IMG/VR virus record: IMGVR_UViG_3300025132_000021
Location: 64,001 to 128,000 of that record
Source: a virus
DNA length: 64,000 bases
Strand: one strand, 5' to 3'
Of this stretch, positions 16,312-62,800 are shown piece after piece. A model generated the notes under the pieces. The model did not search any database, had not been told where the DNA came from, and was given only the letters and a program-made list of their open reading frames with translations. Within the stretch, counting starts at the first letter, position 1; each line of letters opens with the position of its first letter. A program made the translations under genes and the position numbers.

Positions 16312-16385
16312 GGGGTCGTAGTTTAATTTGGAAGAACAACTCGTTTGCGACGAGTAGGCTGGGAGTTCAAATCTCCCCGACTCCA
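16312..16385 (+). tRNA. tRNA-Ala(UGC)
   Basis: Cloverleaf: acceptor GGGGTCG/CGACTCC with G3:U70, anticodon stem ACTCG/CGAGT with loop TT-TGC-GA, T arm GGGAG-TTCAAAT-CTCCC, discriminator A; CCA not encoded. Confidence 0.92.
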
Positions 16386-17398: not shown

Positions 17399-17468
17399 AA
17401 AAAGTCCAATTAGTATTATGAGCAACCATGTGTTGTTCTAAAACCAAAAAAAATGGAGAATGAAAAAT

Positions 17469-18161: not shown

Positions 18162-18162
18162 A

Positions 18163-28245: not shown

Positions 28246-28247
28246 GT

Positions 28248-28601
28248 ATGAAAACAGGAAACTTTTTGGCTATTGGTCTGGCAATTGCTGGAGTCATAGT
28301 TGTTTTTCAAGGAATGAAAAATAAAGAAACCAAAGAGGCTCATGTTTCTCCATCTCAAGAACAATTCGTAGCACGCAACTGGGGAACAGTAGAGCGTGTT
28401 TCTACTGAACGCAACATTTTGGGAGGACAAGCCGTAGGACAAACTTTGAACTATAATGGCATGGGTATCACTCCTGCTGGGCTACAATCCTCAAATGGTA
28501 TTGGACAAGTTTTAGATTTGAATGTTTATGCAGCAACTATGCGTAGCACTGACCCTATCTGGGGACAGAACTACCCGGGTCGTGCTATTGGACAAGAGTA
28601 A
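28248..28601 (+). CDS. N-terminal TM protein
   Basis: GGTGA SD; hydrophobic N-terminus. Confidence 0.7.
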   Translation: MKTGNFLAIGLAIAGVIVVFQGMKNKETKEAHVSPSQEQFVARNWGTVERVSTERNILGGQAVGQTLNYNGMGITPAGLQSSNGIGQVLDLNVYAATMRSTDPIWGQNYPGRAIGQE

Positions 28602-30923: not shown

Positions 30924-32364
30924 GTCCCGAAAACAGCAAGACTTCTTGCGAATCAATGAACCTGAAATCTATGATAGATGGATGCGTCTTTATGGACCTT
31001 ATGAAGCCGACTCTGAATCTTGGCAAGGCATTTCTTTAGCAGGTAAAGTAGATGAAATCTCTGAAATGTTAGGAACTCGTAAGAAAAAAGCCGAAGGTGA
31101 CCCAAGTTGGATGAAAAATCCTGAAGAGAAAAGAAAAGTTTTCTTAAAACTTCAGAAACAAGATGGAGTCCCTCGTATTTGTGAAGTCTGCGAAGATGCC
31201 TACACAGGTTTGTATTACTACACAGAAGATAACGAAACTTTTGTAGTTTGTCGCCCGTGTGTTCAACAAGGAGAACAAGATTGGTCAGAACTATTTGGTG
31301 TTAAACCAGATTGGACAGGTGAACGAGGAGGTCGCACTCGTAATTTAGTAATGCGTAGTGATTATGATTATGTGCCTAAAGCAGATTGTTCTAATTGTGG
31401 AAAACCTGCTGACTTTGCAGTTTATTCTTTGCCCGTTGGTAGCCGATATTTCTGTCAAGAACGCTGTTATTCTGATTATGTAGGATTGCCACCAGAGCCA
31501 GAAGGTTATTATGGCTACACAGCCGAAGATGAACCCGAATGGGTAGTATCTTCTGAAGATATTCAAATCGGAGATAAAGTTAGAAGTTATGATTTTTGTT
31601 TTGGAGGTAAAACTTTACAACTTGATTCTTATGTAGAAGGATATGTTTTACAAATTGCCCCTGTTGAATGGTGTTCACCAACTTGTAATCATTATCATAT
31701 TCGCACCACTGCTCGCCTAATGGGTGGAAAAGTGCAAGAAGATTACGAAGATTATTACTTTCCAGTAGCCGATGCGAACCAAACCGTAGTTAGGCGTTTG
31801 CGAAGTATGAATGCTGAAGATACTCCAAAGCGTATATTTAGCCTAAGTAATCTATGTTGCTCTCGCTGTGGTAGGTATAGTTTTTGTAAAGAAACTTTCA
31901 AATGCTTGCGAGAAGATTGTGACTATGAAGAAGAACCAAGAGAAAGAGTAAGTAATGTGATTACTCTCAAAGGTAAAGTAGTAGATAAAGGACATGGAAC
32001 TATCACAGGATTTGAAGAAAATGATTTATGGGATGTCCATGATTCTGAAAATTGGGGTGGAGACCCAGAAGGACAATTAGCGAAAGCATTGGCTAAGGCT
32101 CGTGAAGATTCTAAAAAGCCTCGTCGTCCATTAAAAATAACTAAACTTCCGCACCGAGACCAAAAAACTTTGAAAGATTTTGAAGCCGAGACTGAAAAAG
32201 AAGTGGCTTTTGAAATGACTCGTAAAGATATTGCTTTAGTAAGTTTTGGTGCTATTCTGGGTGTGATTTCAGGAGTTGTTGGAGAAGTTTTAGCAGAGTT
32301 TTGGTTAGACCGCTACCGCAGAGACCCAGAATTAGTAGTTAGTGAAGAAAAACAGAACGCTTAA
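30913..32364 (+). CDS. multi-module Zn-finger/SH3-like protein with C-terminal TM
   Basis: GTG start with GGAGG SD; CxxC pairs; YEAD, YTAE, MNAE, FEAE between modules. Confidence 0.7.
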   Translation: MPFKSRKQQDFLRINEPEIYDRWMRLYGPYEADSESWQGISLAGKVDEISEMLGTRKKKAEGDPSWMKNPEEKRKVFLKLQKQDGVPRICEVCEDAYTGLYYYTEDNETFVVCRPCVQQGEQDWSELFGVKPDWTGERGGRTRNLVMRSDYDYVPKADCSNCGKPADFAVYSLPVGSRYFCQERCYSDYVGLPPEPEGYYGYTAEDEPEWVVSSEDIQIGDKVRSYDFCFGGKTLQLDSYVEGYVLQIAPVEWCSPTCNHYHIRTTARLMGGKVQEDYEDYYFPVADANQTVVRRLRSMNAEDTPKRIFSLSNLCCSRCGRYSFCKETFKCLREDCDYEEEPRERVSNVITLKGKVVDKGHGTITGFEENDLWDVHDSENWGGDPEGQLAKALAKAREDSKKPRRPLKITKLPHRDQKTLKDFEAETEKEVAFEMTRKDIALVSFGAILGVISGVVGEVLAEFWLDRYRRDPELVVSEEKQNA

Positions 32365-34319: not shown

Positions 34320-35027
34320 ATGAGCATTCGTCGTCAAGCCTATGAGTGGCGAAACATTGTTCAGGGTTCTACTGCTATTGTCAGTAATTCTGGACATCCT
34401 ATTTTGAATTACGCTGGTGATACCTCCGTAATAGGCAGAGCAATTGAGATTCCGCCATTCGTTCCTTATGATATTATGGTCGGAGGCATCGGAAACAACT
34501 TAGAAGAACCAGCCATGCTTAGAGCGCATCAATTGATTGTAATAGACCACATGGGTAGTTATCCTGCTTCAGCAGGTCTAAACATTCGTATTGGCACAAC
34601 TCGTTATTTTCAAAATCCAGACGGTATTCCTGATATTGGAATGCCCTCATCGGCTATGCCTTTTCAACCAATTACTATTTCGGTTGGTGAATCCAAGTTA
34701 GGATTTTTTGAAGAAATCACTCCTCCTGTCTATGTCTTACCCGGTCAAACATGGGGTATTGAGTTCACTTCTTTTGAAACTTTGAACTCTGGAAGTCCAG
34801 TTCCTACATCAGACACCCAAATTGCCAGAGCCTATGTGCGTTATTTACTGATTGATGGTCCTGACCAACTAATTGCTATGAAACTTTTACAACAAAACAT
34901 TCCTATCAGTCCAGAAAACATTCAGTGGTATAAGCAAAACTTAATTCGCAACCGACTTCGTGCTGATTTGGGAATGGAAGAAATGCTGGAAGAACGCCTC
35001 CGTGATAAAGAAAGGAGGTTGATTTGA
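34320..35027 (+). CDS. capsid protein paralog C
   Basis: P-I at 34291; QAYEW, VYVLPGQTW, YLLIDGPDQLIAMKLL, IQWYK shared with A/B. Confidence 0.6.
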   Translation: MSIRRQAYEWRNIVQGSTAIVSNSGHPILNYAGDTSVIGRAIEIPPFVPYDIMVGGIGNNLEEPAMLRAHQLIVIDHMGSYPASAGLNIRIGTTRYFQNPDGIPDIGMPSSAMPFQPITISVGESKLGFFEEITPPVYVLPGQTWGIEFTSFETLNSGSPVPTSDTQIARAYVRYLLIDGPDQLIAMKLLQQNIPISPENIQWYKQNLIRNRLRADLGMEEMLEERLRDKERRLI

Positions 35028-35794
35028 TGGCAATTACTTATCAAAACTATGAATGGACACTGGCAGGCCAAAGTTCTACGGGAGCAGCCAGACCCTCGGA
35101 TTTTCCACCTGCTGGTGTAGAAACTTCTATCTTTGTAGGTGGTTTTGGAAATAACATTGAGATTCCACCATTTGTCAATGAAGACCAATTTGTAGTAATT
35201 GAAAAGTTTGGTAGCACAGGAGGTGTATTAGCAAATATCCGAGTAACAGGAGATGGAACACATAGATTAACAAACTTTGTTCCCAATGGTTTCATTCAAA
35301 TTGTTATCAATTCAACTGGATATTATCAAGACCCACAAAACACATGGCAACATGGAATTAGTGGTGATGCAGCCCCTTATCCATTCGGAACTACTGATAT
35401 TCCACCCAGTTATGTGTTAGACCCTCCTGTTTATGTGCTTCCAGAGCAAACATGGGATATTCGCTACACCATGATGAATAATCTACCAGAGTTTATTCAA
35501 GCATACAATGTAACTAACACGCCAAATACTCTTAAGATTCCTCCAACCACTCAAATTGCCAAATGTCATGTGCAATATCATTTATTTGATGGACCAGATG
35601 CTTTAATTTGTCATCAACTTTTAGAATTGGGTATTCCTATCAATGTCGCTACGGTAGAGTGGTATCGTAGAATCTTGCTTAAAAGTCGTGGTTTGGACAC
35701 ATCTACATGGGAACATTACTTGGAAGTTTCTCAAGCCTTCCGAGACAAAGAAAAAAAGTATGAAGAACTCTATGGTCGCCAAAGAAAGGCATAA
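35027..35794 (+). CDS. capsid protein paralog D
   Basis: GGAGG SD, TGATG overlap; QNYEW, VYVLPEQTWDI, DGPDALICHQLLELG, VEWYRR. Confidence 0.6.
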   Translation: MAITYQNYEWTLAGQSSTGAARPSDFPPAGVETSIFVGGFGNNIEIPPFVNEDQFVVIEKFGSTGGVLANIRVTGDGTHRLTNFVPNGFIQIVINSTGYYQDPQNTWQHGISGDAAPYPFGTTDIPPSYVLDPPVYVLPEQTWDIRYTMMNNLPEFIQAYNVTNTPNTLKIPPTTQIAKCHVQYHLFDGPDALICHQLLELGIPINVATVEWYRRILLKSRGLDTSTWEHYLEVSQAFRDKEKKYEELYGRQRKA

Positions 35795-42422: not shown

Positions 42423-42629
42423 ATGTCGGAAGAGAGTCCAATCCCTAAACGCATGACTGTCAAGAAGTTGGGTCAAAAAGTGGATGAACTACAAGAAGTC
42501 GTAGATATTATCCATAGTGATATTGGAGAACTCAAAGAACTTTTGAAGACTATGATTGAACTTCAAATTGTTAAAACTCCAGAAATTGCTGATTCCAATG
42601 CGGCTTGGGTAGACCGTATGTATTCATAG
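42423..42629 (+). CDS. small coiled-coil protein
   Basis: P-I at 42394 (29 nt); heptad pattern. Confidence 0.65.
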   Translation: MSEESPIPKRMTVKKLGQKVDELQEVVDIIHSDIGELKELLKTMIELQIVKTPEIADSNAAWVDRMYS

Positions 42630-45600
42630 TTTCTCAAACAAAGTTTGTTGTTTGCCTAATTCTTTGCTTTCAAATGTTTCGGCTACCCATTTGCTCACTT
42701 GAGCATACAAGCCCGCAATATAATGATTACATCCATATTTGTCAATAAGGGTCTGCATCAGTCCATCATATTTACTAACACCACCTTCAGTCACAGTCAA
42801 AATCAAACGACCGGGACATAAAGTTTCTACTTCTTCGCCCGTGAATGGGTCAGTCTTGGTTTCCATAATAGTCCGACACTTACCACTCACAGGCACACGG
42901 CGATAACTTGCCCCACACTTAGGACATCTAACCTTTTGTTGCCCATAGGCTCTTAGATTACCTCGCATATCTCTGATAAGGTGTCTGTCTATCAATTTAC
43001 TGGCTTGTTCTTTATTGTCCACAGAAGCCAACATCTCACCTAATGCGAACTGTTCCATAGTTTTCCTTCGCATAGAATCTAAAGTATTGTAAGGATTGTT
43101 TCTTGGACCTGCTGCACAATCTTCAGTATCGTGCGTATAGCCGATTTTACCTACGGGCAATTCGCCAGCATCGGTTAAAGTTTCTACAATGGCTATGCCT
43201 TCAACTTTCAAAGCCGACTTCGGACTTGGTGGTTCATCTGCCTGAGTCAATTCATAAAACTCCACAGGATATTCCCAAACCACATCTACATTCAAGGCTT
43301 CTTTATCAATTTCAGTAGCCACAATTCTGGTTGTCAAAGTCAAAGGTGCGTCCATGCGTCCACCACGACTCTTAGGTAAAAACATACGGCTAAAGTTTAT
43401 TAGTCCTTCTGCCAAGAGCAAGATACAATCAATATCTCCATCACAATTTCGGCGTTTCGCTGCATGATAAAATGGATGTCCGTAATGACCTTTAACACCC
43501 GCTACACCAATGATACGAGCCAATACTGCCCCACTGGTATGCGGTGCAAGACCCATAATCAATTGTCCAATCAAACTTTCTTGAGGGTTATCTTCGTTGA
43601 TTTCATAAAAAGGTTCAAGTTCATACATGGTTTCTAACATATCATTAGTAAATCTCATAGCGGCGACCAAAGAGTTCACACAATTTTCAGCAACCACTAC
43701 ATCTTGAGGCATCAATTCAATAATCTGGTCATCTGCGACCACAGGTTTTCCTTGACAATCTACCACATAACCTAAATCTACTGCTTGTGCTGCCGTTAGT
43801 CCGATTTCATCGGGTCTAAAATGAGTCATGGTAATATCTACCATGTCAAAGCGAATAGTGCCATCACGGAAGGCACTCGTTCCATTTCGGTGTCTTAACA
43901 CTCCTTTGAGCATAGCCTCTGGAGTTTTCTCAGCACTTCGTAGACCTTTGCTACCTTTTACTTCAGGTTCAGTGGCTTGATGAGTAGTTTCTAAACAATC
44001 TTTCCAAATCTCCTCTGTCCCCAGATGTTGTTTAATGACTCCTACAAAGTTTGTTTCCGTTGCCTCGTGCGGTGCTGTCGCATCGCCCGAACAAACACCC
44101 CGCCAAGTCTGTGTATCACAAGTTGGACACACACGGACACCTACTGATACGCTTTCGTTCTTGCGAGCAGCATCACGAATACGGCGTTGAGAACCAGAGT
44201 TAAAACCCACAGGCCAAAGCCCATGCACAGGAGGATTCATCTCCCGATGTTTAGAACCTTCGGGCTTGCCCATTCTGGCTCCAATTCGCAAAGTTGTTCT
44301 GGGTCGGATTTCATAATCGGCCAAATCATTTAACCACTCTATTGCGGATTCATAAATACTTAAGTTTATTTTCAAAGATTTCTCAACTTTGGCTAATAAA
44401 TTAAGAACTAATAAACTTTCATCTCCAAACAGATTGCCCTCTGCGTCTATGTTAATCTGCGCTCGGTAGACCAATTCCCTAAACTTTTCAGGAACTTGAA
44501 TCTTTTCTCCACACAGGCTAATCGTGATATTACTCATCAACTCATAACCTTCTTCGGCTGTCAAATCTTGCCAGCCTGTGGCGACATATTGAGGTGCAAT
44601 TGGCACGCCATAAACTTTTGATTGTTCTACCGCTTCCAAGAAATTAGCAGGTGCGCTAATCATTTCTTTCTTTAACACAGCATTGTGCCATTCTGAAACA
44701 TAAGGACTCGGAGGAAGTGGATGGTTATTTTCTAAGAACTCACCTAATGGAACTAAGAGTTCACCCAAGTCCCAAACTTTACGAATCGGCCACTCTGGTT
44801 CAGTTGGCAGAACCGTCCAATCGTCCTCTGGTTCTAATCCTGCTAAAACTTTCAACTCTGCATCGGAATTAAACCTCTGTGCCGAACCATCATTAAGTTC
44901 TACATAAGGTCCGTCAATACTTGTGCAAGGAGTTGCCACAGTTGCTTTACCCGGTCTCTCATATTTCATTTGAGTTCCACAGATAACGAAACCTGCCATA
45001 GCCATCATAGTAACTGGGTGCATAGCAGTTGTCGCCAATCCTGCTAATCGGCTTCGCCCATAGCGCAATCTTAACCCGCCGCTTTGCATGGGCAATCCAA
45101 ACAAAGGTCGTCCTGCTAAGAAATCACTCATAAACTTATCACTTGGTTTAATTTCCGTAGACCCTGTTTTTGTTTGCACAAAACTTTTTAGCCAATCCCA
45201 GCCATCAAGTTCTAACGCTTCCACATATTTTAGAATCTTTGGTGCTTTCAGAACCAGACCTTCACACATAACCAACAGCATACCTTCACGAACTTTGTTA
45301 GTTGGCACTCTGGGTAAATCACGCTGTCCTGTGACTTCACCACCCACGCCTTCACCATCAACATAAACAGGACAATTTTGGGCAATTACTTCTAATTGAG
45401 GATTACTTGGTCTGTATTGTAGACCACGACTATATTTAGAAACTTCTTCCTTGTATCTTTCCACTTCTGCAAAAGTAACTTTCGGAGTTCCCAAACCAAA
45501 ATCACGGCGTAAGACATCTGCAATCAAAACACTAAGAGCCTGACCTGTTCCACCTGCTGAACGAATTGGTCCAGCATAGTTCACGGCTAAACATTCCGTA

Positions 45601-46190
45601 GCGTCATCATTAGATAGAATCCGACAGGATACTACACCTTCCAGTGGGGCTACAAGGATTCCTTCAGTTAGCACCGCCAATCCTGCACAGATACCATGAT
45701 ACAAACAAGCAGAGATTCTCAAATGTTCACCACGAGCCTTCTGCGCTTCAGTTTCATAAGTTTCTAAAGTTTCTTTCCAATTGGCTTTTCCAATGTCATT
45801 ATTGAATCCCATAACACTTCCAGTGCCTCCGCAATCATCACACGGAACTTTCCAAGTGGGTGTTTTAGCAATTTCACCAGAACCATTACAAGGTTTGCAC
45901 TTTTGTTTAACACCATACAATAAACTTTCAGCCGTTACAATACGAGCAATATCAATTGCTACCAATTCACGGTTTCCATCGTGAATCTCTGTTAATTCAC
46001 GGATTTGCTCTGCGGTGCGACGAAGATGTAAGAAATCCAGAAGTTTTTGAGTTCGGTCTGCCAAGTCGCTGGCTCTTGGGATTTCTACTGTTAAACGAGG
46101 GTCTAAACCTTTCGCACGAGCCTTATCTGCTAATTGATAAACAACATCACACTCTTCTTCTAATCTCTGAATGTATGCTTCATAATCCAT
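42624..46190 (-). CDS. polC: DNA polymerase D large subunit DP2
   Basis: ARAKGLDP..VEIP, LTEGILVAPLEG, YAGPIRSAGGT, RLRYGRSR, ERPGKA, GTIRFD, GLAPHTS, HAAKRRNCDGD, GGRMDAPL, C-terminal Zn site and PIP-like QQTLF. Confidence 0.97.
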   Translation of the reverse strand: MDYEAYIQRLEEECDVVYQLADKARAKGLDPRLTVEIPRASDLADRTQKLLDFLHLRRTAEQIRELTEIHDGNRELVAIDIARIVTAESLLYGVKQKCKPCNGSGEIAKTPTWKVPCDDCGGTGSVMGFNNDIGKANWKETLETYETEAQKARGEHLRISACLYHGICAGLAVLTEGILVAPLEGVVSCRILSNDDATECLAVNYAGPIRSAGGTGQALSVLIADVLRRDFGLGTPKVTFAEVERYKEEVSKYSRGLQYRPSNPQLEVIAQNCPVYVDGEGVGGEVTGQRDLPRVPTNKVREGMLLVMCEGLVLKAPKILKYVEALELDGWDWLKSFVQTKTGSTEIKPSDKFMSDFLAGRPLFGLPMQSGGLRLRYGRSRLAGLATTAMHPVTMMAMAGFVICGTQMKYERPGKATVATPCTSIDGPYVELNDGSAQRFNSDAELKVLAGLEPEDDWTVLPTEPEWPIRKVWDLGELLVPLGEFLENNHPLPPSPYVSEWHNAVLKKEMISAPANFLEAVEQSKVYGVPIAPQYVATGWQDLTAEEGYELMSNITISLCGEKIQVPEKFRELVYRAQINIDAEGNLFGDESLLVLNLLAKVEKSLKINLSIYESAIEWLNDLADYEIRPRTTLRIGARMGKPEGSKHREMNPPVHGLWPVGFNSGSQRRIRDAARKNESVSVGVRVCPTCDTQTWRGVCSGDATAPHEATETNFVGVIKQHLGTEEIWKDCLETTHQATEPEVKGSKGLRSAEKTPEAMLKGVLRHRNGTSAFRDGTIRFDMVDITMTHFRPDEIGLTAAQAVDLGYVVDCQGKPVVADDQIIELMPQDVVVAENCVNSLVAAMRFTNDMLETMYELEPFYEINEDNPQESLIGQLIMGLAPHTSGAVLARIIGVAGVKGHYGHPFYHAAKRRNCDGDIDCILLLAEGLINFSRMFLPKSRGGRMDAPLTLTTRIVATEIDKEALNVDVVWEYPVEFYELTQADEPPSPKSALKVEGIAIVETLTDAGELPVGKIGYTHDTEDCAAGPRNNPYNTLDSMRRKTMEQFALGEMLASVDNKEQASKLIDRHLIRDMRGNLRAYGQQKVRCPKCGASYRRVPVSGKCRTIMETKTDPFTGEEVETLCPGRLILTVTEGGVSKYDGLMQTLIDKYGCNHYIAGLYAQVSKWVAETFESKELGKQQTLFEKL

Positions 46191-46221: not shown

Positions 46222-46235
46222 ATCACTGGCTTAAA
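46222..46235 (-). promoter_or_regulatory. Class II-like promoter TTTAAGCCAGTGAT upstream of DP2
   Basis: 45 nt from the ATG, same spacing as the MCM motif; contains the upstream stop codon. Confidence 0.45.
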
Positions 46236-48939
46236 CTTGTCCGTCCATGAAAGAATATGGGCTACGGTCGTTAATAGAAACAACTTTTAGTTCACCATTC
46301 CAAACTAAAGTAGAACCATTTTCTAACTTGCGAGAAGGAATTGGTGCTAACGCCAAATCAGGGAAAGACCCTGAATCTTTAGGGAAACCTTTCTCTACAT
46401 TAAAACTTTCAATTTGCATCTCTGAACCATCTGGGAAAATCAGATAAATAAAATCTTCAGAATAAGTGTTGCCTAAATCTACGGCCACTACCATATCTTC
46501 GGATTTCCAATCCTCCATTCCTACATCATCAGCAGCCATTTCTATCCAGTTTAACAAATACTCGGCTAATTGAAAACTAATGTTTTCTAATCCATCGTTA
46601 TTCTTTTCTTCAAAAGAAAGAATTGGTTGTCTAAGCATAGTAATATCGCCATCATTATATCCTAAATAACTAAAACTAAATTGACGAGGTGAGCGAGCAT
46701 TAGCATCTCTAATAAAACCAAAGTTTTTACTACGATAGATACGGGCTAAGTTTCGGTGAAATACTAAGTTTTCATCTGACATCCAGAGCCAAAACAAATC
46801 AGCATCACTACTTACTGAACTTTCAGCCCCTTTTGCTAATGCCTTGTAGCAAGCACACTTTGGTTCAATTGCCGAGCAACTCATTGGCTCAGGTGCTTTC
46901 ATGCAAACACAAGGATTGGATTTAGTAGCACCACAGCAACACGAAGTTTTGCTAAGTTTTTCTTCAGCATCACGACGGCGTTTGAGCGACGGTGTTCCGT
47001 CCAGAGGAGTCCAGTTCACAGGTTCTCCAAACTCCATTGGTCTTTGAATAGGTGCAGAACCTTCTTCAGATGCAAAAGGATTTAATTTTTTAGCAGCAGT
47101 TTGAGCCTTATCTTTAATTTTTTGAGTTGCTGGCATCTGTTCTACGGTAGACCTTACTCCACCATATTTGCGGTTGCACCACTCTTCTTGTCTTTCTCTT
47201 TCCTCTACCAATGCCGACTCATCTTTAGTATTCGCAAAGACAGATGCTTTAATTGCATTCCCGAACTCTTGATAAAATGCTGCTTTTTCATTATGTGTCA
47301 GACCTGAGATTTCGGGGGCAACATCTTCTACCAACATATTAACAATCATTGAGCAATTTATGTTCTTTTGAGGAGTTGAATACAGGGTGTAGTTATCATC
47401 ACCAGCCCGACAATAAATACCCATAGCCCTCGCAATAGGCCATGCCAATCTTTTAATTGCGCCTGATGGAATCTCAAACCGTTGCTTAACATAATCTTTA
47501 CCTTCTTTCTTATCCACCATTGTTGCTTGTTTAGTAAAACTACTAACCATTTCTGCAACACCCATCACTGAAGGTTCACTTGTTGCACTGGCGGTTGGAA
47601 TCTTTGACATAGGTTCTCCACGAGCCAAGGCCGCTACCACATCTAATGGAGATTGCACCACACCAGTTCCACTGACAGTAGGACCAGTAGTGCCTGTTTC
47701 TAATTGGGCTAACTCTTCCATCATAATTGATGACAAATCTCTGTAAAACTTCTGACTTTTATTTCCATAAGGCGGTGCAGCCACGACATAACCATCTTTG
47801 GCTAATCTTTTTAATCCACCAATTAAAGCGGCTCGTAATGGTTCAGTTCTTGATTTTGCCCCATCAACTTCTCCCTTAACATAATCTGCTTGAAAACTTT
47901 GTTCAGCACGCATTTCTGGAGGCTTATAGGTGCGACCCAACAAATCATAGATTTCTTCTTCAGTTGCCCCGCCGAGATACTCGTTGGTATCACGGTCAAA
48001 CAATCCGTATTCATTAAGTTTCAAACCTTTGCGCTTGGCTGCCGAGCGCATACCAATGTTATATCCAGAAGGTCCTGTAAAATAAAGTAAGGCTGCGCCG
48101 ATACCAGTAGGTGTGCTAACTTTAATATCTACTTTAACACCATCAATAACTAATTGAGTTTTCTTTTCACCCAACCAATTATATTTCTCATAGTTTCCTT
48201 CTAAGTCGGCTACTATTTCTGGCAAAGTAATACCTTCTTTAAGAATAACTACTACATCAAGGTCGCCCGGGTCTTCCCGACCACGACGATAACTTCCACA
48301 AACTTCTACAAAGTCTGCATAAGGTTCTAACATATCTGAAACTTTATTGGCTAAGAGTTCTGCTTCTGCACGAGTCATACGCTCTGATTCATCTCGGTCT
48401 TCTGCCCCAAACTTTTCAACTAATTGTTTCATAATTTCTTCTTCACTAATCAATCCTAATCTAACCATAGATTCCAACTGCAACAAAGTTTCTTGCATCT
48501 GGGCTTCTTCAATCATCTTTTGATACATCACAGCACGCTCGGCGTAACCTTTTGGAACTTTACCTCTGACCACGGCATTAAAAGTTTCAATTTCGTCCAC
48601 ATCAACTTCTTCCATAACATACAAAATACGATAAGCAGGTTCGTCGTCTAAACTTTCTTCTTGGAGAATGTAGGAAACTTGGTCTTCCGCTTCGCCACGA
48701 ACACCAATGAAAACTTTGTAAGGTAAATCTGCTTTAGTAGACACGGCTTCTAAACTCACGAACTCATCAGCAGGCAAAAGTTCTTGAACACGATATTCCG
48801 CATCAAAGTCCATTAGATATTTAGAATTACGAAACATTTGTTGAGCAAATTGATAAGGCACTAAAACATACCTTTGATTATCTCTGGGGTCAGAAACAAT
48901 AGTTCCCATAGGAGATACAGAAACAAAATTAAGTTGCAT
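46231..48939 (-). CDS. polX: polyprotein-like protein containing a minimal family X DNA polymerase (aa ~181-346)
   Basis: CGSYRRG..GDLDVVV, KVDI, LLYFTG, GLKLNEYGL, EEEIYDLLG..PPEMR; bracketed by FGAE and MRAE; P-I at 48969. Confidence 0.85.
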   Translation of the reverse strand: MQLNFVSVSPMGTIVSDPRDNQRYVLVPYQFAQQMFRNSKYLMDFDAEYRVQELLPADEFVSLEAVSTKADLPYKVFIGVRGEAEDQVSYILQEESLDDEPAYRILYVMEEVDVDEIETFNAVVRGKVPKGYAERAVMYQKMIEEAQMQETLLQLESMVRLGLISEEEIMKQLVEKFGAEDRDESERMTRAEAELLANKVSDMLEPYADFVEVCGSYRRGREDPGDLDVVVILKEGITLPEIVADLEGNYEKYNWLGEKKTQLVIDGVKVDIKVSTPTGIGAALLYFTGPSGYNIGMRSAAKRKGLKLNEYGLFDRDTNEYLGGATEEEIYDLLGRTYKPPEMRAEQSFQADYVKGEVDGAKSRTEPLRAALIGGLKRLAKDGYVVAAPPYGNKSQKFYRDLSSIMMEELAQLETGTTGPTVSGTGVVQSPLDVVAALARGEPMSKIPTASATSEPSVMGVAEMVSSFTKQATMVDKKEGKDYVKQRFEIPSGAIKRLAWPIARAMGIYCRAGDDNYTLYSTPQKNINCSMIVNMLVEDVAPEISGLTHNEKAAFYQEFGNAIKASVFANTKDESALVEERERQEEWCNRKYGGVRSTVEQMPATQKIKDKAQTAAKKLNPFASEEGSAPIQRPMEFGEPVNWTPLDGTPSLKRRRDAEEKLSKTSCCCGATKSNPCVCMKAPEPMSCSAIEPKCACYKALAKGAESSVSSDADLFWLWMSDENLVFHRNLARIYRSKNFGFIRDANARSPRQFSFSYLGYNDGDITMLRQPILSFEEKNNDGLENISFQLAEYLLNWIEMAADDVGMEDWKSEDMVVAVDLGNTYSEDFIYLIFPDGSEMQIESFNVEKGFPKDSGSFPDLALAPIPSRKLENGSTLVWNGELKVVSINDRSPYSFMDGQV

Positions 48940-48965: not shown

Positions 48966-50351
48966 TTAAAGATATGGATAAGGAGTAGCACTCCAAACCT
49001 CTATGGTTTCCGCACCATATTCTCCAGACATCAATTCATAACCAACAAACTTCCAGATTTCAGCCCATGAGCCTCCGCAGGAATTACACCTTACTTCTTG
49101 TAAGCCGTTTTCTAAAGAACCCTCGTAGCCAATATCGTCTGCACCACACCAAGGACAGTGCATCAATTCTGCCATTTCCATGAAAGTTTCAGCATTCATA
49201 GCCTTGTCTATCTCCCAATCTCCATCATTATTCTCTTCATCAAGATAATTACGGGATACTCCAAGTTCATACACAGGTTCTTTATCCATGACACAAAGTT
49301 CATTTTCTTGCCAGAAAAAACTGATGTTATAGGCAATTGTAGAAGCCCAATCTACGGCTTCCCACGGAATCCAAGCAGTTAATACGATACGGTCAAAATC
49401 TTTTCCTTCTTCGCCTTTCATGTGGTCTATACCCTCATGTCCGAACAATGCCCCTGCGTAAAACTTACTCTGCCACAACCAAGAAGTAATCTTATCTCCA
49501 TAAACTCCATATTGGTCTTGCTTTCTATTTTCCCAATTGCCTAATGAATCTACATTAACTGGTGTGCCTACGGGAACATAAAGAACTCTCCATGCTTGCA
49601 TCATTATTCCATGGTCGTCATCAGAATACATCCAAGTTCCCTTTTCAAATCTTTCAAGCCAAATATCAAACATCCTCTCAAAGTATTCATCTTTAGTGGT
49701 ATCTTCGCCAAGTTCCGAACCATCAGGCAAGTCAAACCCTTCCTCATAAGCCCCCAATCCTCCTCCAGCCATATTATGTTCTGCCCAATGTTTAATATCT
49801 TCTTGAGCAGGTGAATACCAAATCCGTTTTATTTCATTTATGATATAATCTGTGCAAGCAAAGTTTTCTTCACTTGATTCTGCATCCAATCTACGGGTCT
49901 CATTGTTTTTGGGAAATAAACTGCTGCCCCAAAACTTTTTGCCAGTGCGCTTGGCCTTACGAACTACCATTGGAGTTCCTGTGCTATCACGAGGCACACG
50001 GTTTAGATAACCAGACTTGACTAAGTTCTCTAACTCATAAACACGGTTTAACAAATTGCGTCGCCAGTTTTCTACTCGGTGAACTCTGGTCGTTCCAGCA
50101 ACTTTCACTCCATCTACCCAGTATTGCACTCGGATAGCATCACGACCTTTCGCCCGACTGGTCTGCCCAGTCACGCTGGAATAAACTCGGATTTCGCCCT
50201 CACCCAAAGGACGGGTGAACACTCTTTCTTTGACAACTCGGATTGCCCCACTGGGATATTTACTGGACCGTTCTTCTATGGAAAGTTCCCTAAAACTCAA
50301 GGCTTCCATAAAATCTTGCATTTGAGCCACGCTAATATCAACATAACTCAT
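48966..50351 (-). CDS. multi-domain protein: basic N-domain, degenerate topoisomerase Zn ribbon, ADP-ribosyltransferase-like domain, Zn ribbon
   Basis: P-I at 50380 (29 nt); LDAE, MNAE, YGAE boundaries; R..S..ExE arrangement. Confidence 0.6.
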   Translation of the reverse strand: MSYVDISVAQMQDFMEALSFRELSIEERSSKYPSGAIRVVKERVFTRPLGEGEIRVYSSVTGQTSRAKGRDAIRVQYWVDGVKVAGTTRVHRVENWRRNLLNRVYELENLVKSGYLNRVPRDSTGTPMVVRKAKRTGKKFWGSSLFPKNNETRRLDAESSEENFACTDYIINEIKRIWYSPAQEDIKHWAEHNMAGGGLGAYEEGFDLPDGSELGEDTTKDEYFERMFDIWLERFEKGTWMYSDDDHGIMMQAWRVLYVPVGTPVNVDSLGNWENRKQDQYGVYGDKITSWLWQSKFYAGALFGHEGIDHMKGEEGKDFDRIVLTAWIPWEAVDWASTIAYNISFFWQENELCVMDKEPVYELGVSRNYLDEENNDGDWEIDKAMNAETFMEMAELMHCPWCGADDIGYEGSLENGLQEVRCNSCGGSWAEIWKFVGYELMSGEYGAETIEVWSATPYPYL

Positions 50352-50523: not shown

Positions 50524-50682
50524 TTACTCGTTGAGGTCGGCCATGCGGTCGCTCAAAAGCAATAGTGCTGATGCCCAAAGTCCGACAAAGATACCAAGGT
50601 TCTCGTCGTGAGCAAAGTAAATAGCAATACTACCCAAGATTGATACAAGGCTTGCACCTAATCCCAACTTTTTCCAGTTCAT
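50524..50682 (-). CDS. 52-aa 2-TM membrane protein (absent from the ORF track)
   Basis: MNWKKLGLGASLVSILGSIAIYFAHDENLGIFVGLWASALLLLSDRMADLNE*; ATGA overlap and GGAGG SD. Confidence 0.8.
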   Translation of the reverse strand: MNWKKLGLGASLVSILGSIAIYFAHDENLGIFVGLWASALLLLSDRMADLNE

Positions 50683-51101
50683 GCCAATGCCTCCTGAAGT
50701 CGTGCCAACAAGTCTGCCTTCTTACCAGTGATAGGAAGGTTAAGTTCTTTGAGTCGGTCTTTAAGTTGAGCGACAGTCAGAGCCTTGAGTTCTTCAATTT
50801 CTTCAGTAGCCGACTCAACAGCAGAGTCCACCGCAGCATCTACTACATCTTCAATGCTTTCTCCTGCTTCCAATGCTTCTTCTACATCGTCTACCACATC
50901 TTCTGCAACATCTTCTGCGGCAGAAGCAATAGTTTCAACGACACTATCAAGTTCTACATCAATGCCTGTGGCATCTTCAATAGCGTCTTCAATTTTGTCA
51001 GCAATTTGTTCAATCGTCTTTCCTCGGTTTTTGAGCCACCAGCCAGCGACAGCCGCCGTAGCGATGCCCAGACCAGTTAGCAATACGGTGTTTGGTTCCA
51101 T
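50679..51101 (-). CDS. membrane-anchored SAP-domain DNA-binding protein
   Basis: N-terminal TM, acidic helical linker, LTVAQLKDRLKELNLPITGKKADLLARL SAP motif; P-I at 51130 (29 nt). Confidence 0.85.
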   Translation of the reverse strand: MEPNTVLLTGLGIATAAVAGWWLKNRGKTIEQIADKIEDAIEDATGIDVELDSVVETIASAAEDVAEDVVDDVEEALEAGESIEDVVDAAVDSAVESATEEIEELKALTVAQLKDRLKELNLPITGKKADLLARLQEALA

Positions 51102-51126: not shown

Positions 51127-52077
51127 TTAAAGTTGTTCATCATTGAGATTGTGTTTAACCTCTATGACTTCTGGCTTAGTGGGATACTGCATGGCCGTAT
51201 CTTCATTAAGGAACATCACTTGAAATTGTCCCTTTGAGGTTTCTTCGGTTAATTCACTCTTGGATAAATAAATAGGTGGTCGGAACATTAAGTTATCATC
51301 AACACCTGTGGATACATCACTCATCATCTTGGCTTCGTATCTTTGCAGGATTTGTTCTAAGCGAGTTAAGTCCATATCTCCAGATGCCGAAATACGACCT
51401 GTGCTGGCAGCGTGAGCCGAAACTTTTGAATTGCCTAAGAACTTGTTGGCTAAATCAGCATCAGAAATAATTAAACTTTCCAACTTTTGTCTAAGTATTG
51501 TCATTACTTGCGGTTTCCAAAACTCTGCTACTTCAAAAGGACTCAAGGTGCTGTTCCAGTTTTCAAAGTCCACTTGCCACCAAATATCCATGTATTCAGC
51601 ATCGGCTTCAGCAGGTGTAGCCTTTGGTCCCATTTGTTCTCCACGACCAATAGTAGTTCCACCCAATCCCAGAATGCCTCCATAATATACTAATGAATAG
51701 TTTTCAGTTTTGACAAAGTTTGTTTGCCACTTACCACCAGTTCTGGAGATAACATATTCTTCAACTCCACTACCCGGAAAAGTTTCATAAGTTTGTCTGC
51801 TCATGGTTTTCACAGTGGTTTCTAATTCTTTTGCAGCCGCAGTTGCCGACTTTCCTTCATTCATTAGGTCAATCATTTCAAATCTTTTCTGTTCAGGTGT
51901 GCGAACAATTTCAAATCTGCGGTTCTTGATAATCCATTTAATTCCTTTGGCAGCCAAATAACCTTTCAAAGTTTTCGGAGTAGTGCGTGCCAGTTTAGTG
52001 GCTCTGGTCATACTAATGCCACGACTCAATAACAAATCCAGAGCAATTAAGGCTCTTTGTTGGGTCAATGGATTCAT
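51127..52077 (-). CDS. tandem HTH DNA-binding protein
   Basis: SMTRATKLARTTPKTL and SATAAAKELETTVKTM; P-I at 52106 puts the start at ATG 52077. Confidence 0.6.
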   Translation of the reverse strand: MNPLTQQRALIALDLLLSRGISMTRATKLARTTPKTLKGYLAAKGIKWIIKNRRFEIVRTPEQKRFEMIDLMNEGKSATAAAKELETTVKTMSRQTYETFPGSGVEEYVISRTGGKWQTNFVKTENYSLVYYGGILGLGGTTIGRGEQMGPKATPAEADAEYMDIWWQVDFENWNSTLSPFEVAEFWKPQVMTILRQKLESLIISDADLANKFLGNSKVSAHAASTGRISASGDMDLTRLEQILQRYEAKMMSDVSTGVDDNLMFRPPIYLSKSELTEETSKGQFQVMFLNEDTAMQYPTKPEVIEVKHNLNDEQL

Positions 52078-52102
52078 ATTATCACTATCTCCTATCAACT
52101 AC

Positions 52103-53827
52103 TTAACTGTTGTCATCGTCCCACATATCAGGTGGAAGCACTTGAATGAATGTGGCTTTCTGTATGTTTTTCTCTGTGCATTCCAACCAACCTTGGTTAA
52201 TCATGTATTCCCATTCTTTGTCGCTAAATGGAACTCTGTCCCGCATTTCTTTGACATCTGCAAACGCTCTTTCTAAAGTTTGTGCATAGTCATTTAAGCG
52301 TTGGTGAACTTCAGCAATTCTTTTAGATGCCCCTGACTTAATATACTTCCAATCTCCATCTTGAATCAATGTATTCAAAGATTCAGTAAAGATGCGCTCG
52401 GCTTTTTCAATACTCATGCGAGAAACTACTCTTTCACCATTTAGTCGGGCAAACCCTTTGCACAGGTTCACAAACTCTTGAAACTTTCGGAAATCACGAC
52501 TGGTTCTTTTGTCTAAGAAAGCAGCAGAGAACTCTGGCATCGCCTTAATACGATTCATGGCTTCACGAATGTCCATACGATGTGGAGTAATATCGGGTTC
52601 TTGTTCACTTACATACCTTAGATACTGACGGAAGAAACTTCTCCACATACTCAAGTTGTTGTTAAACTCTTTCTTGAGATACTTACCATTCATAGCATCA
52701 AGGATTTTATCTTCAATAGCATACTCGGTATCACCATCAGTCAAGGTCATACGAGCGAAAATCAATGTCAAACGACTAAGAATCTGTGGTGTGTATTCTC
52801 CAAAAGCACCTAACATACCCATTTTAGCAGGTCTACCATCTTTGGTTTCTGTTTTGGGGTCCCAATCACGAGGAGGATTACCTAAGAACATAAAATTAAC
52901 TTTACCTTCTCTTTTGGTGTCCACTTGTCCTTTTTGCATTGTGAAACTACCATTAGCCATCACATTCATTAGTTCACCGAATACCTCTTGATTCCATGTT
53001 TGAAACTCGGACACAGCGATGCGTTCATTATTCATCTTTGGTATCAATCCCAACTCAATTGAGTTGAGGTCTTCGCCACTCATGGCTCCGAATAACCCCG
53101 GAATTGTGCAAAGTTTTCCACTGGAGGCTACGCCACACGGCACTAAAGGTTCAATCATCTGTTCAATCAAATGGTCTTTACCCTCGCCCATACTGCTGAT
53201 AATACCCATGTGTAGCATATCAGTTTTCTTTTGAGGACTTAGGCAATACAACATAACTCCATATTTGATAGGAGGGTCTGCATAAAGTTTAGACCATAAA
53301 GTATCATCACGAACCATCAATTCTAATGGGCTGAAAGCAGGACCGTGTTCATCACACAAAGCCATAAACTCCGTGAACTGTTCATCAGTCATCTGGCTAC
53401 TTTGCATTTCAACATTCTTTTGAATGTCAGTGACTACAAAGACCTTATCACGACCCATCATTTGATAAGCACCGCTTACCATGAGTTGTGAACCATCACG
53501 AATACTTTCAGTTAGCATCATCATTGTTTGACGCAGCCGTTCTGAATCCATACCACCGGGTCTGGAATCTAAACTACCATTATGTGCCATGCACTCTACG
53601 GCGTAAGTTCCATCACTGATGAAGAAACGAATAGCCGACTGGTCAGGATTAGGACTTTTAGAATTAAGAGGAACTTCTTCCATCTTCAGACAAATGCCTG
53701 AACCTATTTCTAAATGCTTCTGTGAAATCTTAGCGGCATAGATGCGCTCAATGTTGGCATCGGTGCTATGATAGGTGGATGTTGCAGACTCTACGAACTC
53801 ATGTATTTCGCTCGGAATGTCTAACAT
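52103..53827 (-). CDS. mcm: divergent MCM-family replicative helicase
   Basis: LHMGIISSMGEGKD, TIPGLFGA, IELGLI, IAVSEF, MANGSFTMQKG, GNP, ILSRLTL arginine finger, FARL; N-terminal OB fold. Confidence 0.8.
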   Translation of the reverse strand: MLDIPSEIHEFVESATSTYHSTDANIERIYAAKISQKHLEIGSGICLKMEEVPLNSKSPNPDQSAIRFFISDGTYAVECMAHNGSLDSRPGGMDSERLRQTMMMLTESIRDGSQLMVSGAYQMMGRDKVFVVTDIQKNVEMQSSQMTDEQFTEFMALCDEHGPAFSPLELMVRDDTLWSKLYADPPIKYGVMLYCLSPQKKTDMLHMGIISSMGEGKDHLIEQMIEPLVPCGVASSGKLCTIPGLFGAMSGEDLNSIELGLIPKMNNERIAVSEFQTWNQEVFGELMNVMANGSFTMQKGQVDTKREGKVNFMFLGNPPRDWDPKTETKDGRPAKMGMLGAFGEYTPQILSRLTLIFARMTLTDGDTEYAIEDKILDAMNGKYLKKEFNNNLSMWRSFFRQYLRYVSEQEPDITPHRMDIREAMNRIKAMPEFSAAFLDKRTSRDFRKFQEFVNLCKGFARLNGERVVSRMSIEKAERIFTESLNTLIQDGDWKYIKSGASKRIAEVHQRLNDYAQTLERAFADVKEMRDRVPFSDKEWEYMINQGWLECTEKNIQKATFIQVLPPDMWDDDNS

Positions 53828-60008: not shown

Positions 60009-61631
60009 ATGTTTGGTAAGATTGTGGGTGCAGGACAAGCAGGATTCGTTTTTGAGAATCCCAAAAATCCCGATAGTTATTACAAAATTGTGGCTTTACC
60101 AGAACAACCTTTAGAAAAAATGCCTTTGCGTTCCACGAAAGCCCGATTAGGTGCTATCAATCAAAATCAAGCAGAACTTTTCTTTAGACTCTACCAAGAA
60201 GACTTGGACATCCCACAACTTCCAAAAGTTTTTGCTTTCTACACTGGGACAGTAACGCCGAAACTGCGCCGAAACTTATTGAACGCTGCTTCTGAAGATG
60301 AGGAACTTGAAAGTTTAGTTCGTGGTCTCAAAACTAATCAAAAAATTGCTGTGTGGGAAATGGAACGCATACCTTGTTTGAGCGAAAATGATTTCTGCGA
60401 GCGTTATCCTACTCGTCAGCCTCATAATAATCCAGATTATCAAAACTTATTGGATACTATGTTAGACCTTGGTTTTGTAGTTCGTGATGTTGCCAATCCT
60501 GAAAACTTTGGTTATCGTGAAAATGGAACACAAGTTTTCTACGACCCTATTGTGGCTCCTTGGCCTGTGCAAGAGGTAACAAAAGTTTCAGACCCGAACC
60601 GTTATGCTCGTTTCGTAGCCAGTTTTGGTCCCGACCAGATTAGCACCACTCGTCGTGCGATTCAATCTGGAGATTATTTCGGTTGGTATCATAGTGGAGG
60701 AGTTATGGAGGCAGAAATGTCCCATGAACAGGATGCTGACATAGTTAATGAATACCGATATGCAACATTTATTCTAATTGCTCGCACGCCAAGTGGTAAT
60801 GATTACCAAGTTTCACCTTTAAGCGAACATAATTCGGCTTGGAGAACCGCTTTTGGCAAGAAACCACACGGCGTAGAAGAATTAGTTGAAGAAATTGCTT
60901 TCATATTTGATAATCTGGGGACAGCACCTAATCCCTATGCCATTGATATTTTCCTTTTAGTTCCTGATGGAAGGCTGAAGTTAGCAGGTGTAATCAAATA
61001 TGGTAAAGTAGAAGCCAGTTATCCTTACGAGAACCTTGCTAAACTTTTGAATCGTCGTCTGGACTTTGAGCGTTCTGCTGAAACTTTGCAGGACAACTAT
61101 TTCCCAGAAGGAACTATTTACAATCCTAATCAATCAGGAGCCATAAACTGGATTAAACCTGCACCTTATTTAGACATCTGGGCTTCTTTTTATGGTGATA
61201 TTGTAGAGTGGCTACAAGAAAATGTTTATGAAATGGATGATGATGGCGATTCAGCCATAGAAATGTGGGAACGATTCTCACCTGACTTAAAACCACTTAT
61301 GGAGTATGTTCAACAAAACGATTTAGACCCCGATGATATTTTACCAGAAATCATGGAGGAATCTCCATTGAACAGACCTTATTCAACAGTTTCTAAACCC
61401 CAACTAATCAAATCCAGAAATGCAGGATTTTTGAACTTCATGCGTAGAGCCACTTTATCCGTTCCATGTGCTGAATGTTATGGTAAAGGATACATCAATC
61501 GCACAGCAGGAGAATACGATGAACACGAGTGGACAGAAGAGTGCGAAACTTGTAATGAAGAAGGAGAAGTAGATATTGATAACACTGATAATCGCTATTA
61601 TAGACAGCATAAGGAGGACTACCCACTATGA
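60009..61631 (+). CDS. multi-domain protein: N-terminal protein-kinase-like domain, C-terminal DnaJ-type Zn finger
   Basis: GAGQAGFVF..YYKI, WEMERI, RDVANPENFG..FYDP; MEAE and RSAE boundaries; CAECYGKG..CETC. Confidence 0.65.
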   Translation: MFGKIVGAGQAGFVFENPKNPDSYYKIVALPEQPLEKMPLRSTKARLGAINQNQAELFFRLYQEDLDIPQLPKVFAFYTGTVTPKLRRNLLNAASEDEELESLVRGLKTNQKIAVWEMERIPCLSENDFCERYPTRQPHNNPDYQNLLDTMLDLGFVVRDVANPENFGYRENGTQVFYDPIVAPWPVQEVTKVSDPNRYARFVASFGPDQISTTRRAIQSGDYFGWYHSGGVMEAEMSHEQDADIVNEYRYATFILIARTPSGNDYQVSPLSEHNSAWRTAFGKKPHGVEELVEEIAFIFDNLGTAPNPYAIDIFLLVPDGRLKLAGVIKYGKVEASYPYENLAKLLNRRLDFERSAETLQDNYFPEGTIYNPNQSGAINWIKPAPYLDIWASFYGDIVEWLQENVYEMDDDGDSAIEMWERFSPDLKPLMEYVQQNDLDPDDILPEIMEESPLNRPYSTVSKPQLIKSRNAGFLNFMRRATLSVPCAECYGKGYINRTAGEYDEHEWTEECETCNEEGEVDIDNTDNRYYRQHKEDYPL

Positions 61632-62800
61632 AAACAATACCAAACTTTCCGTTTCCTGAACCCGACTTAGCACCCACTGGCAAAGCCCTTGATGTAGAGG
61701 CTCGTAAGCCTCGTCAAATGTTTAACCCTGCTAATGGTTCAGAATGGTGGTGTCTCAACAAATATGACGGTGTTCGTTCTTTATCAGGATATTGGGCTGT
61801 CAATGATTACTTAGCCCAGACCAGTCGCAAAGACAACATCCAAGATGGATATAACACTGAATACCCCCGTGAATGTCTACAAGAGGTTTATCGTTATCTT
61901 CGTGATGCAGGAGTCTGGAAACAAGTAGGCGAGGGCGTAGGGCCTGTTATTGATGGTGAGATGTATGATGACCGAGTAACTGCCGACCCTGACTATTTTG
62001 ATACCTTAAGTGGTATGGTTCGTAAATCTTCAGGAACATCACCGGGCTTTGAAGGTATTTACTATTTGATATTTGATTGCTATTGGCCTGATGACCCAGA
62101 CTTAGTATATCAAGACCGCATGACTCGTTTAATTGCTGATATGCAATATGCTTTGGGATTGTTAGAACCCACTTGGCCGAATCAAAGAAAAAATAAATTG
62201 CGTTTCTGTTCTATTCCCACTTCTGGTGAATCTTATTTTCTATACAATGACCCTGCACTTGCACCTGCATACAGCACCACTCCCGATACCTTAGACCTTA
62301 GCACTCCGTCAGAATCTTTTGTTCCCAAAGACCACGCCGCTATTAACATTTTGAATCCTGATTATTGGAAGATTTTAGGTATAGGAACTTCTTCTTATAC
62401 GGATACTGCCGAGTTATTGGTTTATTATTTAGAATCTGCTGAAAGTTTAGGTTTAGAAGGAATTATGGTTCGTAGTAATCACAGAGGATATATCGGTGGA
62501 CGAGCAGGAACAAATCTTTACAAGTTAAAATCTTTTGAAGATGACGAGTTTGAAATTATTGGCTACAATGGAGTAATGTCTGAAGCAGGAATACTTTTGA
62601 ATCGTCCAGTATGGAAATGTATTACTAAATCTGGAGAAGAGTTCTTAGCCAGCGCACCGGGAACTCATGCTTCACAAGAGCAACAATGGGAAGACCGAGA
62701 CAAGATTGTTGGCAAGATGCTGACTGTCAAATATCAAAACCTTTCGGCCAGAGGTGTCCCAAGATTCCCCAAAGGTGTAGCCATTCGTGATTACGAGTAA
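61628..62800 (+). CDS. lig: ATP-dependent DNA ligase (minimal viral type)
   Basis: KYDGVR (I), IDGEMY (III), LIFDC (IIIa), EGIMVR (IV), LYKLK (V), PRFP (VI). Confidence 0.92.
   Translation: MKTIPNFPFPEPDLAPTGKALDVEARKPRQMFNPANGSEWWCLNKYDGVRSLSGYWAVNDYLAQTSRKDNIQDGYNTEYPRECLQEVYRYLRDAGVWKQVGEGVGPVIDGEMYDDRVTADPDYFDTLSGMVRKSSGTSPGFEGIYYLIFDCYWPDDPDLVYQDRMTRLIADMQYALGLLEPTWPNQRKNKLRFCSIPTSGESYFLYNDPALAPAYSTTPDTLDLSTPSESFVPKDHAAINILNPDYWKILGIGTSSYTDTAELLVYYLESAESLGLEGIMVRSNHRGYIGGRAGTNLYKLKSFEDDEFEIIGYNGVMSEAGILLNRPVWKCITKSGEEFLASAPGTHASQEQQWEDRDKIVGKMLTVKYQNLSARGVPRFPKGVAIRDYE

Follow-up and report, generated by a model that had tools for sequence, protein, structure and literature searches.

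The stretch of DNA analysed here, referred to below as the window, is 64,000 nucleotides long and comprises bases 64001-128000 of the 160,342-bp record IMGVR_UViG_3300025132_000021, which IMG/VR labels as viral; coordinates are those of the window unless they are said to be those of the contig. On its minus strand, an open reading frame (ORF) at 42624-46190 encodes 1188 residues with no internal stop and is identified as the large catalytic subunit (DP2) of family D DNA polymerase (PolD). All three Pfam domains are present (N-terminal, PF03833, E 8e-83; central, PF24844, 3e-86; catalytic, PF24846, 1e-105), the protein scores 929 bits against TIGR00354 (cut-off 702), and its best match in the PDB is DP2 of Pyrococcus abyssi (6t8h_B, E 2.8e-203), to which it aligns along its length. 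Judged by its sequence, the ORF is a complete DP2 with every domain and the active-site Asp triad.

The catalytic segment reads HAAKRRNCDGDIDC in the viral protein and HAAKRRNCDGDEDA in Pyrococcus. Its core, NCDGDID (residues 915-921; 43428-43448, minus strand), differs from the NCDGDED of P. abyssi at a single position, the sixth of the motif, where I replaces E between the last two Asp residues, and the triad itself (D917, D919 and D921) is invariant in the DP2 alignment (A1), where it aligns with the Asp residues of the P. abyssi motif. Near the N-terminus, residues 83-166 (45693-45944, minus strand) make up an insertion specific to the viral clade, standing where P. abyssi has residues 87-107. 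It carries two CxxCxGxG zinc-finger motifs, CKPCNGSG (98-105) and CDDCGGTG (117-124), and gives weak Pfam matches to DnaJ_CXXCXGXG and Anti-TRAP. Towards the other end, four Cys that are invariant in A1 (C1089, C1092, C1105 and C1125; 42816-42926, minus strand) would form the C-terminal zinc module of DP2, which contacts DP1, the small subunit, in solved PolD structures ( PMC6355029, PMC7544198). The protein ends in ...KQQTLFEKL, a tail (residues 1177-1188; 42627-42662, minus strand) that resembles the PCNA-interacting protein (PIP) motif, with the core Q1181-x-x-L1184-F. Q1181 is invariant and L1184 nearly so in A1, and the form is non-canonical (QxxL[FW], not QxxLxxF[LFM]).

A preliminary description, made from the letters of the window, had reported a complete DP2 with the motif NCDGDID, a double CxxCxGxG insertion near the N-terminus and a PIP-like tail, lying among ORFans with no DP1 beside it. 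Each of these observations stands, with the qualification that the tail is non-canonical and that two of the neighbours do have a recognisable family.

Although no DP1 gene lies adjacent to DP2 in the window, the same contig encodes an intact one of 447 residues (aa) at contig positions 19245-20588, about 86 kb away. It has an OB fold, a Metallophos domain (3e-11) and DNA_pol_E_B (PF04042, 40.9 bits against a cut-off of 29.1), and it matches the NCBIfam DP1 model NF003118 at E 9.6e-125. A profile search of the whole contig with PF04042 missed this gene, a false negative, whereas direct hmmscan of the ORF finds it clearly. The phosphoesterase motifs DxH, GDxxD, GNHD and GHTH are all invariant across 31 members of the clade. 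Both subunits are also found in a 166-kb relative (G001) and in the 150-kb IMG/VR contig 3300027845_000169, at a distance of 88-101 kb from one another, so that all three of the IMG/VR genomes of at least 150 kb hold DP1 and DP2 (86-101 kb apart). In two genomes of Marine Group II (MGII) archaea that have large contigs, DP1 and DP2 are far apart too; the missing adjacent DP1 is thus the ancestral arrangement, neither an anomaly nor a sign of an absent partner.

The contig further encodes its own PCNA (contig 31072-31809), the gene for which directly follows an XPF/ERCC4 nuclease gene, a 5'-3' exonuclease (contig 27305-28486) and a PriS-like primase (contig 146142-147095; PF01896, 28.9 bits). 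The preliminary description had left two partners open, a distant viral DP1 or the DP1 and PCNA of the host, and had proposed a search of the contig for DP1, PCNA and primase; all three turned up, the PCNA in divergent form, which favours the former option. An ATP-dependent DNA ligase of 390 aa is encoded in the window at 61628-62800 on the plus strand (DNA_ligase_A_M 4e-07, OB_2 2.5e-08, phrog_114 9e-29), as is a dNMP kinase. No PolA, PolB or PolC was found among ORFs of at least 100 aa, nor PolB by a PF00136 profile search of the whole contig, a negative to be read with care as the same kind of search missed DP1. PolD is therefore the only replicase candidate recognisable on the contig.

Protein searches with DP2 retrieve homologues that run unbroken from 96% to 53% identity, and the DP2 and DP1 clades comprise more than 100 homologues, with identities of 53-100%. 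Cellular DP2 reach about 48% identity at most: the closest in GTDB species genomes are 35-42% identical (80 best matches), and in 151 Poseidoniia genomes the values are 40-44% for Marine Group III (MGIII) and, over the C-terminal half, 43-48% for MGII. Similarly, viral DP1 is 43-48% identical to that of MGII and 34-39% to that of MGIII. The MGII DP2 are 1300-1450 aa long and match the query in two pieces, while those of MGIII are of about 1100 aa; the N-terminal half of MGII DP2 thus seems to hold a large insertion peculiar to that lineage.

In a FastTree phylogeny of 96 DP2 sequences, all 46 sampled clade members are monophyletic (support 100, stem 0.8) and sister to MGII, followed by MGIII, inside the Thermoplasmatota. 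Because the program flagged a long-branch join, the tree was redone with 37 sequences under LG+C20+F+G4, which once more recovered a monophyletic clade (100) with MGII as its sister (SH-aLRT 100). The DP1 tree (LG+G4) gives the same picture, with 39 of 39 sampled members monophyletic (100) and sister to MGII with a support of 99. Several signatures set the clade apart from cellular enzymes. DGDID occurs in all 121 clade members (120 NCDGDID and one NADGDID), whereas NCDGDED is found in each of the 114 cellular DP2; 93 of the 121, and none of the 114, have two CxxCxGxG motifs in their strict form. Cellular DP2 end in a canonical PIP, KQxxLxDF[LFM], while the clade mostly ends in QxxL[FW], at most three residues from the C-terminus. 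Viral DP1, at 420-460 aa, is shorter by some 80-100 N-terminal residues than the DP1 of MGII (514-552 aa).

Because the positions of DP1 and DP2 in their trees are congruent, the phylogeny suggests that both subunits came jointly from the stem lineage of MGII, with vertical inheritance thereafter. I infer a host-to-virus direction from the nesting of the clade within cellular Thermoplasmatota, and the sister position of both subunits to MGII PolD is compatible with the captured host replicase envisaged in the preliminary description, which had called for just such a comparison of DP2 with Thermoplasmatota. The depth of the clade and its own signatures mark the capture as ancient. A recent capture is rejected, given that no cellular DP2 exceeds about 48% identity. 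The host most likely belongs to the marine Thermoplasmatota, and there probably to Marine Group II (Poseidoniales).

Members of the DP2 clade also occur in NCBI metagenome-assembled genomes (MAGs) labelled Flavobacteriaceae, Woesearchaeota and Thorarchaeota (MBT4113776.1, MBN88034.1 and MHA1287615.1), and a clade DP1 occurs in one MAG labelled Bathyarchaeota. The "Woesearchaeota" MAG has a separate, ordinary DP1 as well. Because the labels contradict each other and this MAG has a DP1 of its own, the bins concerned are probably contaminated with mis-binned viral contigs.

The clamp itself is very divergent: a search against 1.84 billion representatives returned 175 matches at E<=1e-3 and 25 at E<=1e-10. 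The PolD subunits, unlike this PCNA, keep about 45% identity to MGII. A complex of the viral PCNA with DP2 residues 1095-1188 was modelled and scored 0.64, against 0.00 for the best control; 58 of 80 solved complexes reached the mark used, as did 2 of 110 mismatched pairs. Model runs agreed in at least 63% of contacts, with a predicted local distance difference test value (pLDDT) of at least 48 for the partner. In the model, DP2 residues 1177-1187 contact PCNA residues 40-47, 119-123 and 240-245, which is the usual PIP site. The model supports docking of the DP2 tail on the viral PCNA, although its pass may reflect likeness to solved PCNA-PIP complexes rather than binding by this pair of its own. 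The idea that other proteins of the genome share a clamp-docking tail of this type was rejected: DP2 alone carries it, one of 201 ORFs, where about 1.4 would be expected by chance.

Is the element that carries this polymerase a virus? Both ends of the record are 99-bp perfect inverted terminal repeats (ITRs), which are present also in the 166-kb relative. Its RNA genes amount to one tRNA and no rRNA (Rfam over 144 kb; ARAGORN), and the record accordingly combines defined ends with an absence of cellular core genes. The candidate genome-packaging ATPase is a HerA/FtsK-type P-loop protein of 394 aa (730-1914, plus strand), which matches phrog_2666, a head-and-packaging family, at 5e-13 and the NCBIfam HerA model at 1e-09.

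Candidate capsid proteins are found as four paralogues of about 230-250 aa, arranged as two tandem pairs. The first pair consists of a 233-aa protein (17460-18161, plus strand) and a paralogue at 18094-18849 (plus strand; 62% identity in alignment A4). The second (34320-35027 and 35024-35794, plus strand; 37% identity each in A4) lies within a block that adjoins DP2 in all relatives. The 233-aa protein has 1564 homologues, the best 120 all above 70% identity, no other protein examined in the family being as conserved. Its AlphaFold (AF2) model (pLDDT 72) shows a beta-sandwich and, at the C-terminus, a helix, and the top Foldseek match of the model is the capsid of Sulfolobus polyhedral virus 1 (SPV1), at E 2.7e-3. 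VIA, an independent all-against-all aligner, also ranks SPV1 first (Z 8.3, root-mean-square deviation 3.3 A, 135 residues), followed by HHIV-2 (Z 7.4), HCIV-1, SH1 and P23-77. The assignment as a jelly-roll capsid is suggestive. Pfam and PHROGs revealed neither an HK97 capsid nor a portal or classical terminase in any ORF of at least 100 aa, although very divergent versions are possible. With the packaging ATPase, the capsid-like proteins and the absence of a cellular core as grounds, I consider the element likely to be a virus.

Taken together, it is likely that this DP2 is the catalytic subunit of a PolD that the virus encodes in full, and that the element is a non-tailed virus with linear double-stranded DNA (dsDNA). 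DP1 and DP2 would assemble into the heterodimer through the C-terminal zinc module of DP2, and the shortened QxxL[F/W] tail of DP2 would tether PolD to the virus's own divergent PCNA. Together with the viral MCM-like helicase, the PriS-like primase, the 5'-3' exonuclease and the ATP-dependent ligase, this enzyme would replicate the viral genome. An ancestor of the MGII lineage was probably the source of both subunits, taken up jointly; within the virus lineage they would then have gained the change from DGDED to DGDID, the double CxxCxGxG insertion and, in DP1, a truncated N-terminus. On this evidence the viral PolD is complete and stems from a lineage that is large, old and apparently undescribed, and is neither a recent theft nor an artefact. 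It is also rather likely, though I put it less firmly, that this lineage consists of globally distributed archaeal viruses without tails and with very large genomes (160-180 kb), which have carried a complete PolD, a clamp, TBP and TFB since before the MGII radiation.

Several points weigh against this interpretation. The capsid call depends on a moderate model and middling scores (pLDDT 72, Z 8.3, E 2.7e-3), and CheckV puts the completeness of these records at merely 53-65%. A 123-kb relative (IMGVR_UViG_3300038530_004289, G157) is classed as a provirus by IMG/VR. No RFC clamp loader was recognised, the AAA proteins of the element resembling other AAA+ types, and the completion of linear ends by an RNA-primed PolD lacks an explanation. 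Finally, the direction of transfer is read from a sister position, and the host from the phylogenetic affinity of PolD alone. As for the provirus, it has DP2 and capsid-like paralogues, and its class may stem from its cell-like genes or hint at integration; the record ends before any flanking DNA.

An element with so many cellular-type genes (TBP, TFB, ribonucleotide reductase, repair enzymes and an ArsA/ParA-type ATPase), with no HK97 capsid, portal or classical terminase by Pfam or PHROGs and with capsid fold scores that are merely middling, might instead be a large linear extrachromosomal replicon of marine archaea, plasmid-like or Borg-like, that replicates itself by PolD. I regard this as unlikely, given the match of the HerA/FtsK ATPase to a PHROG head-and-packaging family (E 5e-13), the four paralogues of a highly conserved and very abundant protein of about 230 aa, the agreement of two independent aligners on SPV1 and HHIV-2 capsids as best fold matches, and the viral classification in IMG/VR. 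An assembly chimera, or a mis-binned cellular contig with a host DP2, is hardly credible and was rejected on conserved synteny: the gene order on both sides of DP2 is repeated in six independent assemblies, the GC content is uniform (0.41-0.43 across the DP2 gene, the same as in the rest of the window and in the flanks), and the nearest cellular DP2 is less than 50% identical. Neither a chimeric assembly nor near-identity to a cellular DP2, which the preliminary description had named as grounds for giving up its view, was encountered. The NCBI copies with Flavobacteriaceae, Woesearchaeota, Thorarchaeota and Bathyarchaeota labels could be taken to favour a cellular origin of the contig, but the labels are mutually contradictory, as expected of mis-binned viral contigs, and in the "Woesearchaeota" MAG there is an ordinary DP1 in addition.

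Two further alternatives accept the gene as viral but change its role. DP1 is not beside DP2, and viral DP1 is without some 80-100 N-terminal residues of MGII DP1, so that viral DP2 might partner the DP1 and/or the PCNA of the host while the viral DP1 and PCNA serve otherwise. This is improbable: DP1 and DP2 occur together in all three genomes of at least 150 kb, their trees are congruent, the catalytic motifs of viral DP1 are invariant and MGII chromosomes likewise have the two genes unlinked, and the DP2 tail is unlike the canonical host-type PIP and was modelled on the viral PCNA. Still less probable is a PolD that is here for repair or recombination, with replication by the host replisome or by an unrecognised ORFan polymerase. 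The many repair genes (UvdE, Fpg, XPF, Hjc-like and PolX) and the large ORFs without family, which are the majority, are in keeping with such a role; yet in every case studied PolD is the essential replicase ( PMC7594292, PMC7544198), the gene lies beside that of the MCM-like helicase in every relative, and no PolA, PolB or PolC was found.

How does a viral PolD with its own partners compare with known systems? The cellular PolD of MGII and MGIII is alike in its three-domain DP2, two-barrel core, Asp triad and C-terminal zinc module, in a DP1 with OB and phosphoesterase domains and in the unlinked genes, and MGII is the sister in both trees. The viral clade differs from it in being 40-48% identical, in having DGDID rather than DGDED and a double CxxCxGxG insertion of about 60 aa, in a shorter DP1, in its QxxL[FW] end as opposed to QxxLxDF[LFM] and in residing on a 160-kb element with ITRs; at 1105-1206 aa, viral DP2 is without the large insertion of the 1300-1450-aa MGII type. 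The solved PolD and PolD-PCNA structures of P. abyssi and Thermococcus (6t8h, 6hms and 6knb) show homology over the full length and the same active-site segment, HAAKRRNCDGD-x-D, and PolD of Pyrococcus and Thermococcus binds PCNA via the C-terminal tail of DP2 ( PMC7594292). The solved enzymes are without the N-terminal insertion, however, whereas the viral tail is shortened and the viral PCNA very divergent.

Among viruses, the Magroviruses (Magrovirales) of MGII have genomes of about 100 kb with archaeal-type replication genes that include PCNA, primase and ligase ( PMC5434244, PMC11706807). They resemble the element in being marine, in the probable MGII host and in the large archaeal-type replication gene set. 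Magroviruses are tailed, however, with HK97 capsid, terminase and PolB, while the element has PolD and 160-180 kb and none of these was recognised in it; lacking a recognisable HK97 capsid, terminase, portal and PolB, it would not belong to the Magrovirales. The best fold matches of the capsid-like protein, its paired paralogues, the HerA/FtsK-type ATPase and the linear dsDNA with ITRs are reminiscent of archaeal viruses with a single jelly-roll capsid protein and such an ATPase (SPV1, HHIV-2, SH1, HCIV-1 and P23-77). The likeness is confined to structure (about 5-13% identity, Z 6-8). SPV1, the sphaerolipoviruses (HHIV-2, SH1 and HCIV-1) and P23-77 have genomes of about 17-31 kb, against which the element is five to ten times larger, and none of them is known to have a comparable replisome.

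A search of the open full-text literature (subscription-only papers being outside its scope) returned no paper that describes a PolD encoded by a virus. A survey of dsDNA viruses turned up no homologues of family D ( Kazlauskas et al., 2016; PMC4889955), and Koonin et al. (2020; PMC7281927) describe PolD as archaeal only, with two-barrel polymerases following cells and palm-domain ones following viruses. The polymerase families that a 2024 paper calls common in DNA viruses are only A, B and C ( PMC11348598), and the described MGII viruses use PolB ( PMC11706807). The literature thus treats PolD as the sole replicative polymerase family confined to cells, a picture that a deep viral clade alters. 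If the interpretation holds, this would be the first viral PolD and a counter-example to the rule that assigns two-barrel enzymes to cells and palm-domain ones to viruses. Such natural variants, in which an active-site neighbour residue is altered, a zinc finger is added, DP1 is minimal and the clamp tail is shortened, would be useful for structure-function work, and viral PolD could serve as a phylogenetic marker for seemingly abundant, undescribed large archaeal viruses of the sea. The clade would also explain the "DNA polymerase II" genes in MAGs labelled as unrelated organisms.

The neighbours of DP2 are mostly without a family, the exceptions being a PolX-like fusion protein and the MCM-like helicase, and the same holds for most ORFs of the element, including most of the large ones. 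The candidate replicative helicase, 574 aa long (52103-53827, minus strand), matches Pfam MCM at 5.6e-04 and occurs in six of six related loci; PF00493 is annotated on its orthologues in two of them (L135 and L137). Invariably between this gene and DP2 is that of a 323-aa protein without known family (51127-52098, minus strand; tblastn 32-80% identity, six of six related loci). A 140-aa protein (50679-51101, minus strand) is 34-55% identical by tblastn to the products of relatives' genes with a SAP DNA-binding domain (PF02037; loci L008, L136 and L137). According to tblastn across six independent assemblies, these three genes are shared upstream of DP2, and small ORFs, a 319-aa protein and the capsid-like pair are shared downstream. 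The contexts of clade DP2 viewed at 88, 71, 60, 55, 55 and 54% identity, drawn from Tara/ENA, JGI and IMG/VR assemblies, are all similar ORFan-rich loci; nine of nine inspected clade loci lie in an element of this type, and none of the DP2-carrying contigs read exceeds 200 kb.

Between the SAP protein and DP2, the segment 46231-50351 (minus strand) is variable, and relatives have proteins of 1120 or 1384 aa there instead. In the window it encodes the 902-aa PolX fusion protein (46231-48939, minus strand), with N-terminal PolX palm and thumb (DNA_pol_B_thumb 1e-20, palm 6e-07; NCBIfam PolX 2e-18), which tblastn shows to be conserved only in part among relatives and whose C-terminal 550 aa gave no usable match in the ESM Atlas. 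The segment also encodes a 461-aa protein (48966-50351, minus strand) with no Pfam or NCBIfam family and no PDB match at E<=10, the N-terminal 170 or so aa of which are kept in relatives (tblastn 37-72% identity).

Elsewhere on the contig, outside the window, TBP (PF00352, 5e-46) and TFB (PF00382, 3e-45) are encoded. The contig also has an XPD-like helicase, a class II ribonucleotide reductase, UvdE, Fpg, XPF, a Hjc-like resolvase and a dCMP deaminase, as well as MazG, NUDIX, PP2C, an ArsA-type ATPase and three C5 DNA methyltransferases, a gene set that is unusually cell-like for an archaeal virus. The sole RNA gene found, a tRNA-Ala (UGC) at 16312-16385 on the plus strand (ARAGORN; Rfam 65.7 bits), is placed just 5' of the first capsid-like gene pair. 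A CDC48/FtsH-like AAA+ ATPase (PF00004, 2e-22) and a WGR-domain protein, at 21410-22771 and 26734-28245, sit amid large ORFans in what may be a structural region.

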